From the NCBI RefSeq assembly GCF_006345805.1, contig NW_021826422.1:1-12954 (forward strand): DNA of 12,954 nucleotides, given 5' to 3'. Shown here in pieces: positions 2,739 to 12,954 of the stretch (within the stretch, counting starts at the first letter, position 1; each line of letters opens with the position of its first letter). Both the position numbers and the translations under genes were made by a program. The notes under the pieces were generated by a model. It was not told the origin of the DNA. It was given only the letters and a program-made list of their open reading frames with translations, and ran no database searches. This stretch comes from Octopus sinensis (Eukaryota).

Positions 2739-3045
2739 TCACGTGATCACGATCACGTGACCGACCAGTCTAACAGATGTAGTTACACATCGCTGGTCAC
2801 AATGCGTTCGCATTGTTTAAGCCTTCGAATGACGCCACCCCGCTGGCTAAGCGAGCAGGCCAACAGAAGAAAGAGTGGGATAAAGCGTGGTGAAAGAGTA
2901 CAGTAGGGATCACCACCCCCTGCCGGAGCCTCGTGGAGCTTTTAGGTGTTTTCGCTAAACACTCACAACGCCCGGTCTGGGAATCGAAACCGCGATCCTA
3001 CGACCGCGAGTCCACTGCCCTAACCACTGGGCCATTGCGCCTCCA
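2739..3045 (-). mobile_element. full-length tRNA-derived SINE (head A + tail Y)
   Basis: 2862-3045 is highly similar to 1886-2078 (same A/B boxes). The 3' part 2739-2861 is unrelated to tail X and ends in CACGTGAT-like repeats. Possible TSD tatatatatca (2731-2741) / tatgtatatca (3046-3056), but it lies in a TA tract. Confidence 0.9.
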
Positions 3046-3792: not shown

Positions 3793-3954
3793 AGGCGCAG
3801 GAGTGGCTGTGTGGTAAGGAGCTTGCTTACCAACCACATGGTTCCGGGTTCAGTCCCACTGCGTGGCACCTTGGGCAAGTGTCTTCTACTATAGCCTCGA
3901 GCCGGCCAAAGCCATGTGAGTGGAGTTGGTAGACGGAAACTGAAAGAAGCCTGT

Positions 3955-4403: not shown

Positions 4404-4648
4404 CACTCTGTCGGTTACGATGACGAGTGTTCCATGTGCAAGTGGCTGAGCACTCCACAGACACGTATGCCCATAACGTAGTTGTCAAGAAGCATCAGTG
4501 TAGTACAAAATGTGAATTACTGGTACAGCCTGTATTTGTCAGCTGAGTAAACTGGAAAAATGAGGAATAAAGTGTCTTGCTCACAGATACAACACTCCAC
4601 CGGGAATCGAACGCACGACATTACGAACCTGAGCGTTATACTCCGACC
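4404..4648 (-). mobile_element. old, internally deleted SINE (head B + tail X)
   Basis: ctctgtcggttacga, gtgcaagtggctgagcactccacagacac and aataaagtgtcttg all match 11136-11454. Confidence 0.8.

Positions 4649-5493: not shown

Positions 5494-5537
<44 letters not shown>
5494..5537. repeat. (CA)n microsatellite
   Basis: Perfect tandem AC directly abutting the palindrome. Confidence 0.95.
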
Positions 5538-5539
<2 letters not shown>

Positions 5540-5601
5540 AAAGAAAATGGAAAGTGAGAACACAAAAAAATCAATTTATTTATCTAATAGACAATTTCAT
5601 G

Positions 5602-5694
5602 TTGCCAACGCACGTTTCAATTTTTCACCTTCATTCATATTTTATAGCTAAAATTGCATCATGAATTTAAAAGGTAAAAATCTCTTCAGGGCAA
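5602..5694 (-). ncRNA. minimal type-I hammerhead ribozyme motif
   Basis: Minus strand reads TTGCC-CTGAAGA-GATTTTTACCTT...AAGGTGAAAAATT-GAAA-CGTGCG-TT-GGCAA. This gives a perfect 5-bp stem I, intact core, long stem II, near-palindromic minimal stem III and a GUU cleavage triplet. Confidence 0.75.
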
Positions 5695-5783
5695 AAATTG
5701 ACATATATTCATTTACATCCTAATGGATGCAAAGTTCATTGAACTTTCTATCCATTAGGATGTAAATGAATATATGCCAATTT

Positions 5784-5876
5784 CTGCTCTGAAGAGTTTT
5801 TTACCTTTTAATTTCATAATGCAATTTTGATTATAAAATATGAATGAAGGTGAAAAATTGAAACGTGCGTAGGCGA
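5784..5876 (+). ncRNA. minimal type-I hammerhead ribozyme motif (mirror copy)
   Basis: TGCT-CTGAAGA(5789-5795)-GTTTTTTACCTT...AAGGTGAAAAATT-GAAA(5860-5863)-CGTGCG-TA-GGCG. Stem I is 4 bp with two G-U pairs; cleavage triplet GUA; AATAAA at 5898-5903. Confidence 0.68.
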
Positions 5877-5954
5877 CATGAAATTGACTATTAGGTAAAT
5901 AAATTGAGTTTTCTGTGTTCTCACTCCCCATCTACTTTATATTATATTATATCA

Positions 5955-5965
5955 TATTATATATG

Positions 5966-6004
<39 letters not shown>
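5955..6004. repeat. (TA)n microsatellite
   Basis: Tandem TA between the two fold-back elements. Confidence 0.95.
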
Positions 6005-11135: not shown

Positions 11136-11452
11136 GGAGCTCTCTGTCGGTTACGACGACTAGGGTCCCAGCTGATACGCTTGCTGATACAGCTTGCTCG
11201 TGAAATTAACGTGCAAGTGGCTGAGCACTCCACAGACATGTGTACCCCTAACGTAGTTCTCAAGGAGATTCAGCGTGACACAGAGTGTGACAAGGCTGGC
11301 CACTTTGAAATTCAGGTACTACTTATTTTTGCCAGCTTAGTGGACTGGAGCAACGTGAAATAAAGTGTCTTGAGCACAACACGTCGCCGAGAATTGAGCT
11401 CACGACATTGCGATCATGAGTCGAATGCCCTAACCACTAAGCCACGCGCCTT

Positions 11453-12836: not shown

Positions 12837-12954
12837 GTGGTTTTGTGGTCAGAGGCATGCTTCCAAAACACATGGTTCCGGTTTCAGTCCCACTGCGTGG
12901 CACCTTGCGCAAGTGTCTTCTGCTATAGCCTCGGACTGACCACAGCTCTGTGTG
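12837..12954 (+). mobile_element. 5' part of SINE family C, cut by the window edge
   Basis: cacatggttccggtttcagtcccactgcgtggcaccttgcgcaagtgtcttctgctatagcctcg is near-identical to 3835-3899. Confidence 0.9.

Follow-up and report, generated by a model that had tools for sequence, protein, structure and literature searches.

The window, by which we mean the whole stretch of 12,954 nucleotides of Octopus sinensis DNA that was analysed, has as its longest inverted repeat a palindrome of 401 bp, in which two arms of 200 nt meet at a 1-nt centre and differ from each other at 21 positions without a single insertion or deletion (Table 1). This gapless palindrome had been described in an initial annotation of the DNA and is borne out in every dimension, together with the (CA)n and (TA)n tracts that were said to enclose it. 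The arms stand head to head, without a tandem array, and each RNA strand of the palindrome carries one hammerhead only. Neither an ORF or host gene nor the RT/GIY-YIG gene of a Penelope-like element (PLE) was found in the window, and the flanks of the palindrome contain no target-site duplication. Dispersed over the window are SINE-like repeats (1773-1864, 4442-4533 and 11217-11308; 2014-2067, 2981-3034 and 11391-11444; 3803-3918 and 12837-12952), which resemble octopus SINEs, and a weak tRNA match (22.8 bits) lies at 11385-11446.

Table 1. Features at the palindrome, in window coordinates; family positions count from C3 of the hammerhead core.
Feature	Position	Strand	Remarks
(CA)n tract	5494..5537		left end of palindrome; likely a degenerated microsatellite target; comparable flanks at other copies
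Palindrome arms	5539-5738 and 5740-5939		90% complementary
Left arm	5539..5740	-	5'-truncated 3' end (pLTR) of a likely Hydra-type PLE; family about -51 to +151; ends at site A; subfamily alpha
Left type I hammerhead motif	5590..5702	-	core 5689-5683, stem II 5682-5619, GAAA 5618-5615
Left stem III	5615-5608	-	self-complementary; predicted cut 5607/5606; descriptor passed
Head-to-head junction	5738..5741		aligned to the family sequence, arms overlap by 1 nt at 5740
Right arm	5740..5950	+	same pLTR segment, about -49 to +162, into TA-rich target
DPE-like GGATG	5758..5762	+	mirror copy 5720-5716 on -; putative function
Right type I hammerhead motif	5776..5888	+	core 5789-5795, stem II 5796-5859, GAAA 5860-5863
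Right stem III	5863-5870	+	predicted cut 5871/5872; core intact, stems damaged, descriptor failed
(TA)n tract	5938..6004		right end of palindrome; usual target of the PLE family

The hammerhead motifs were scored with a type I descriptor of our own, which demands the core, four pairs in stem I, four pairs in stem II and a self-complementary stem III, and which matches random window-like sequences at a rate of 0.003 per sequence (300 trials), so that the motif exceeds what chance would give. The right arm fails it owing to a U.U mismatch at the second stem II pair and a weakened stem I. Thus, of the complete hammerhead proposed for each arm, the motifs are in place in both, but only the left arm passes; core and three helices are found in that arm and in the family consensus, the right arm falling short in stem II. 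The perfect UUGCC/GGCAA stem I attributed to the left arm is indeed present, but it departs from the family consensus (GGCGA), as the U at the cleavage position of that arm departs from the consensus GUA. The ttcata/tatgaa pairing said to prolong stem II and both predicted cut positions were recovered; the motif cannot be called minimal, since its stem II spans 64 nt. CUGAAGA, at the core coordinates of Table 1, and CGUGCG are present in both arms, and AATAAA stands at 5898 in the right arm and at 5580 in the left. When Rfam was consulted, as had been suggested, no hammerhead was matched on either arm at E<=10 and none in the window at E<=1, and the folding z-scores of the two arms are -0.9 and -1.2, against -4.3 and -3.5 for the consensuses. 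The expectation that read-through would bury the ribozyme in a long hairpin is supported by a predicted fold of -246 kcal/mol. As judged from its sequence, the window keeps at most one still plausible hammerhead, that of the left arm.

The origin of the arms can be traced in longer copies. A search with the arm gave 47 matches from the best 40 of 299 candidates, the other loci being 76-87% identical. At one locus (L031) a broken YRDD-type RT is flanked by two inverted arms, at another (L129) the arm is preceded on its own strand by RT, thumb, Cys linker and GIY-YIG, and in 8 of 30 endonuclease loci an arm lies at most 1.5 kb downstream, again on the same strand. These longer copies confirm the proposed adjacency of the arm to a PLE RT/GIY-YIG gene and lend support to the reading as a collapsed PLE, the arm standing downstream of a broken RT and GIY-YIG gene; the type I hammerhead of Penelope type with a palindromic stem III is likewise upheld. 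The nearest Atlas clusters include a GIY-YIG one (0.94; PF01541 on 52% of its members). The features of EN+ PLEs are found as follows: RT and then GIY-YIG in one ORF, broken in the family copies and intact (947 aa) in a young sister family, and a hammerhead in the pLTR. That sister family, of Hydra type (L171:3998-6838, L172-L175 and L189; G000:C17:13314500 and others), has intact ORFs of 770-947 aa with asparagine-rich inserts, near-identical inverted arms of up to 3.9 kb and 775 exact matches to the pLTR motif.

For the Hydra clade, Craig et al. 2021 (PMC8557442) list DKT, CxC-x5-C, CxxC/CxH, RWK and the lack of CCHH. DKT was found in L130, and CxC-x5-C, CxxC and CxH in L142, L144, L147 and L024, L129 having CxC-x7-C; no CCHH occurs in the window's family, which inserts into (TA)n. 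The N-terminal RWK is seen in the sister ORF, and no intact N-terminus was found for the window's family. A PLE of the Hydra clade is therefore likely, as far as motifs can place it. The Neptune clade, which was the first reading, and the alternative of Neptune or Nematis were dropped after this motif check, the CX2-5CxxC linker and CCHH not being found. Pfam returned no RT or GIY-YIG family, whether for the broken family peptides, the intact sister ORF or the 20 homologues scanned out of 150 listed, and a PDB sequence search and one protein search gave no match. No intact parent of the window's family was found, every copy seen being broken. We regard the PLE identity of the palindrome as very likely. 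Three observations may be added: another insertion of the window's family (L145; G000:C2:105075497-105078820) holds an endonuclease piece between two outward-facing arms; L031:2437-2614 is an unrelated palindrome of 179 nt, 95% self-complementary; and a protein bearing an ankyrin-repeat name (P0173, Octopus-named) has a piece 68% identical over 21% of the sister ORF, either a gene-model artefact or a captured exon.

The hammerhead motif is likely genuine for the parent element, because six other sequence families keep the core and a palindromic stem III while their stems differ. In 61 loci around related RT/endonuclease matches the descriptor gave 18 matches, against none in ten randomised sets, and these 18 fall into the six families, with the same core, stems that differ yet pair, and stem III palindromes of differing sequence; the grouping is our own, the stems were compared by eye without a statistic, and a link to a PLE gene was made for only some of the families. 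Type I hammerhead families whose stem III is palindromic were noted at L189:1085 and 220, L186:2947, L179:2295 and 1715, L135:8414, and L166:2913 and 835, with stem II ranging from a minimal 12 nt up to 76 nt and with parents that are identified in part; most of these hammerhead families have an unusual stem II of 60-76 nt. The sister-family motif matches Rfam Hammerhead_1 at E=0.0033 and 22 bits, which is under the gathering score of 34. Instead of the G10.1-C11.1 pair of type I hammerheads, 48 of the 56 aligned copies have an unusual G.U, as does the young sister family, while the relatives L166 and L135 have G-C.

In the 56 of 77 copies that were aligned (those omitted being mostly copies with larger indels) no stem covariation was detected, RNAalifold gave no consensus structure and pair counts were no better than in shuffles (90-252 of 500). 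Intact cores are found in 33 of all 77 copies. The substitution rate is 6.6% in the core and 7.8% at other sites (p=0.24), with 26% at CpG, which means that the core is preserved no better than the rest. The stems are slightly better conserved than the sequence outside the motif (7.2% vs 9.1%, p=0.0007), which is not strictly neutral and could stem from search bias or subfamily structure. AATAAA belongs to the family consensus and is absent 3' of the motif in the sister family.

Two fixed sites mark the ends of family copies, site A lying at +151 to +162 and site B at about +345, and the interval of ~190 nt between them corresponds to the PLE tail. After 8 of the 47 rows, themselves from the best 40 of 299 candidates, had been dropped as second arms or pieces, 39 loci were left, of which 20 end at A (counted at +145 to +172, one arm per locus), 13 at B (from +330 onwards) and the remaining 6 at other places, the surroundings being mostly TA-rich repeats. 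Two-arm loci are arranged head to head, and the tail is one-sided wherever both ends are readable, with the exception of the window, which ends in A on both sides and in whose flanks a tail search found no B tail; by our own count from the listing, at least 17 other two-arm loci are asymmetric in this way. The inverted, 5'-truncated copy with a one-sided tail that characterizes EN+ PLEs is thus seen in the family, and the window has the inversion without the tail. As for the relation between the arms, 40 of the 77 copies belong to a subfamily alpha, 33 to beta, which leaves 4 without assignment; the two arms of the window belong to alpha and have five derived changes in common, one of them unique among the 77 copies, a number of shared changes reached by 32 of the 780 alpha pairs. 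Elsewhere, the arms of assignable two-arm loci match in subfamily in 8 of 8 cases. With both arms alpha and five derived changes in common, a single event is indicated: the arms come from one source and likely from one old insertion, and have likely been decaying since. Taken together, the palindrome most probably, at roughly 85%, represents two 5'-truncated, hammerhead-bearing PLE 3' ends, likely joined head to head in one insertion and now likely inert and decaying.

Where such arms begin may have a reason of its own. At family position -60 an initiator-like TCAGT is found, with GGATG at exactly +28 from it, and the GGATG at 5758..5762 resembles the DPE consensus. TCAGT is missing from both window arms, so that neither holds the putative start site. 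Since 5' ends lie at -72 to -40 in 15 of the 39 family loci, a start site near -58 might explain the starts of the short arms in that range. It is offered as a hypothesis, because the sister family lacks the same pattern: its starts peak at -82 to -116, and it has more palindromes near -140 (11) than near -57 (5 loci, which probably represent 4 events). The corresponding junction test in the window's family gave 1 against 0. Penelope, according to PMC2377424, has an internal promoter.

The sister family offers younger junctions in number. From the first 100 of its 775 listed matches, 91 arms were examined, which form 64 loci after the removal of 6 duplicates. Among these listed matches, 41 of 42 head-to-head junctions pair an A end with a B end, the second end of the remaining one falling outside the stretch. 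The two arms start within 5 nt of each other in 14 of the 42 (permutation mean 1.6; 0 of 20000), and among the other 28 the longer arm is the A arm as often as the B arm (14 each), again among the matches listed. Paired arms there have 0.8 variants in common, compared with 0.1 for a random pair (45 pairs, matches listed). The junctions consist of short overlaps, short palindromes or templated inserts, and one palindrome (C23:14873417) has a 1-nt centre, as in the window; the tail measures about 120 nt. Given these 14 near-perfect palindromes and the A/B polarity, palindromes of this kind are routine insertion products. Furthermore, there are at least 16 tiny sister insertions, some probable duplicates included, whose centre falls on stem III or the cut site and which all combine an A end with a B end (examples, within L279-L318, are G000:C4:159166026, C8:55028923 and C11:72466206). 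Where the centre at this stem III hot spot is asymmetric, the loop lies in the B arm at 8 of 10 loci (p about 0.02-0.05). The predicted cut coincides with the start of three sister arms and lies within 1 nt of a fourth start (L272, L273, L302 and L294), while the 3 matches to a control position included no true junction; a further candidate, L300, proved to be an internal rearrangement. These numbers, which would bear on cleaved RNA as a template, are small, and the cut-site starts are a weak hint of cleavage in vivo.

For the window copy, we lean towards a route with two primings. The protein of the element would nick both strands of a (TA)n target, and each nick would prime the copying of uncleaved sense RNA, with A as the start for one nick and B for the other; both cDNAs would stop, at a point that in the window lies about 50 nt 5' of the hammerhead core, and would then be joined at the 3' end via microhomology, amounting there to 1 nt. 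Two primings followed by end joining are preferred because of the A/B ends of the sister family, its longer A arms (at least these 14 pairs need two primings on RNA) and the agreement with PMC11167929 (Frangieh et al. 2024), which describes two internal RT start sites, the cutting and extension of both strands, uncleaved RNA as the main template and a predicted dimer; sister arms span the predicted cut site, which likewise points to an uncleaved template. Against priming at A and B stands the window itself, whose A/A ends without a tail are unlike all 41 resolvable sister pairs. Its B tail may have been lost later between the TA-rich ends, or A may have been used for both primings. It is the parent element to which the hammerhead would have been of use, probably in dimeric form by way of the palindromic stem III, and any read-through RNA at the window would mask the motif in a hairpin of 200 bp.

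The same layout would arise if the 3' end of one target-primed cDNA folded back and primed its own copying, the mirror arm being its copy and ending at A, a course we consider possible though rather unlikely. It would explain the near-perfect symmetry and the common private changes, and many symmetric sister junctions sit on short palindromes; self-priming on an antisense template is proposed for Penelope palindromic junctions in the Discussion of PMC3846280. The sister loci centred on stem III or the cut site also speak for it, and the loop in the B arm at 8 of 10 favours self-priming for those loci. However, in the 14 of 42 sister pairs in which the A arm is the longer one, it cannot be a copy of the B arm, and the family sequence at the window's centre gives no templated stem but merely the 1-nt overlap. 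Extending the two-priming route, one may speculate, with less confidence still, that a dimeric enzyme primes the target ends at two RNA sites, always one A and one B, on templates from a single source that are perhaps paired by stem III, the hammerhead setting the arm joins by pausing. A hammerhead acting as a template-pairing and pausing device would account for the cluster of palindromes at stem III and the cut site, and, if this were true, PLE insertions would be a fossil read-out of PLE integration. No paper on the sister junction rules or on the joined mechanism was found in a literature search that covered few subscription papers.

Contigs from three of four sequencing runs, belonging to separate studies, bridge the centre of the palindrome: that of X1, which may be the source sample, covers 5700-5842 and that of X2 5699-5885, both with 0 differences from the window, and that of X5, a run labelled as another organism, covers 5694-5885 with 6 differences. 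X3 yielded no bridging contig in the 80% covered. The presence of the junction in a run labelled as another organism could suggest that the host has taken over the insertion as a functional hairpin or ribozyme RNA, whether as a source of small RNAs, an editing substrate or a cutter of transcripts, and so could the zero indels across 200 bp and the 11 core positions free of mismatches between the arms. We consider this very improbable: mismatches would spare the core by chance with a probability of 0.30, 12 of the 21 lie inside the motif, the window has no ORF or host gene, and the X5 contig (one contig, depth 6.6) has C5789G, that is, C3G in the right-arm core, a change reported in PMC11167929 to abolish cleavage.

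Highly improbable, too, is that the 401 bp move as a unit, in the manner of a retrozyme, as a non-autonomous, self-symmetric ribozyme element. Animal retrozymes do derive from PLE pLTRs according to a preprint (10.64898/2026.07.22.740005), and five other near-palindromes of the family have centres within about 30 nt of that of the window. Yet all of these centres differ, the other near-palindromes keep a one-sided tail, the arms within a locus have a common subfamily and private changes, and the window shows neither a tandem array nor a target-site duplication. The self-symmetric, non-autonomous family that the initial annotation had contemplated is therefore not supported: the arm belongs to a longer element, since 23 of the 39 loci reach at least 24 nt, and in most cases hundreds of nt, past the window's centre in the upstream direction, and the centres of other head-to-head pairs differ, so that no palindromic family exists among the best-scored candidates. 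The proposed search for dispersed full palindromes sharing ends and centre found none among these candidates, and the exact 12+12-nt junction pattern occurs at the window only. The symmetry of the palindrome is a by-product of insertion. Finally, that it is an assembly fold-back on a small unplaced contig, a worry already voiced in the annotation and fed by the window being an entire unplaced contig of 12,954 bases from a 2.7-Gb genome, has practically no chance of being right, given the 21 differing sites and the bridging of the centre in three studies.

The window locus itself is of little import, opposite-strand hammerhead pairs near PLEs being already in print: Cervera and de la Pena 2014 (PMC4209133) recorded such motifs in pairs, 100-700 bp apart and on opposite strands, and these motifs may already figure in the hammerhead supplement (S2) of PMC8557442. 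Where an animal genome contains a palindrome with hammerheads, a PLE insertion product is the reading to consider first. The junction statistics of the sister family are the more interesting by-product of this analysis. With its intact ORFs and about 775 arms, that family is a good candidate for mechanism work, and its countable rules, namely strict A/B polarity, coupled arm starts and a junction hot spot at the hammerhead core, can test models of inverted PLE insertion.

When compared with known systems, the family is most like the Hydra clade EN+ PLEs of PMC8557442, with a C-terminal GIY-YIG, DKT, CxC-x5-C, CxxC/CxH, no CCHH, (TA)n targets and a hammerhead. The supplement of that paper lists Hydra-1_Obim from Octopus bimaculoides, with no pLTR noted there, whereas the window's family has frequent inverted ends. 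The hammerhead shares with the PLE type I hammerheads of PMC4209133 the core CUGANGA/GAAA/UH and a palindromic stem III suited to dimers, the metazoan PLE motifs being described there as of low, dimer-dependent activity. It differs from them in a stem II of 64 nt instead of 7-8 bp, a 10.1-11.1 pair that is G.U and not G-C, the lack of an extra base after A9 and a stem I that continues for 8 bp past a 4-nt bulge. With non-LTR retrozymes the palindrome has in common that it is non-coding, PLE-derived and equipped with a type I hammerhead. These form head-to-tail arrays with two hammerheads on one strand (10.64898/2026.07.22.740005), and this class was rejected for the window, which is head to head with one hammerhead per strand and lacks an array with at least two on one strand. 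Poseidon from Anolis (PAc; PMC11167929) resembles the family in having two RT start sites 3' of the hammerhead that define the tail, an AT-rich target and uncleaved RNA as the copied template, but it belongs to a different clade, and the joining of inverted arms is not described in the accessible part of that paper. Canonical PLE insertions (PMC8557442; Arkhipova et al. 2013, PMC3846280) show the same head-to-head inverted repeats, palindromic junctions, one-sided tails and AT-rich targets, with tails of 30-40 nt compared with ~190 nt in the window's family and ~120 in the sister family; unlike them, the window keeps just 200 nt per arm and no tail. The locus is thus of a known kind, a decayed transposon stump and no new mobile element.
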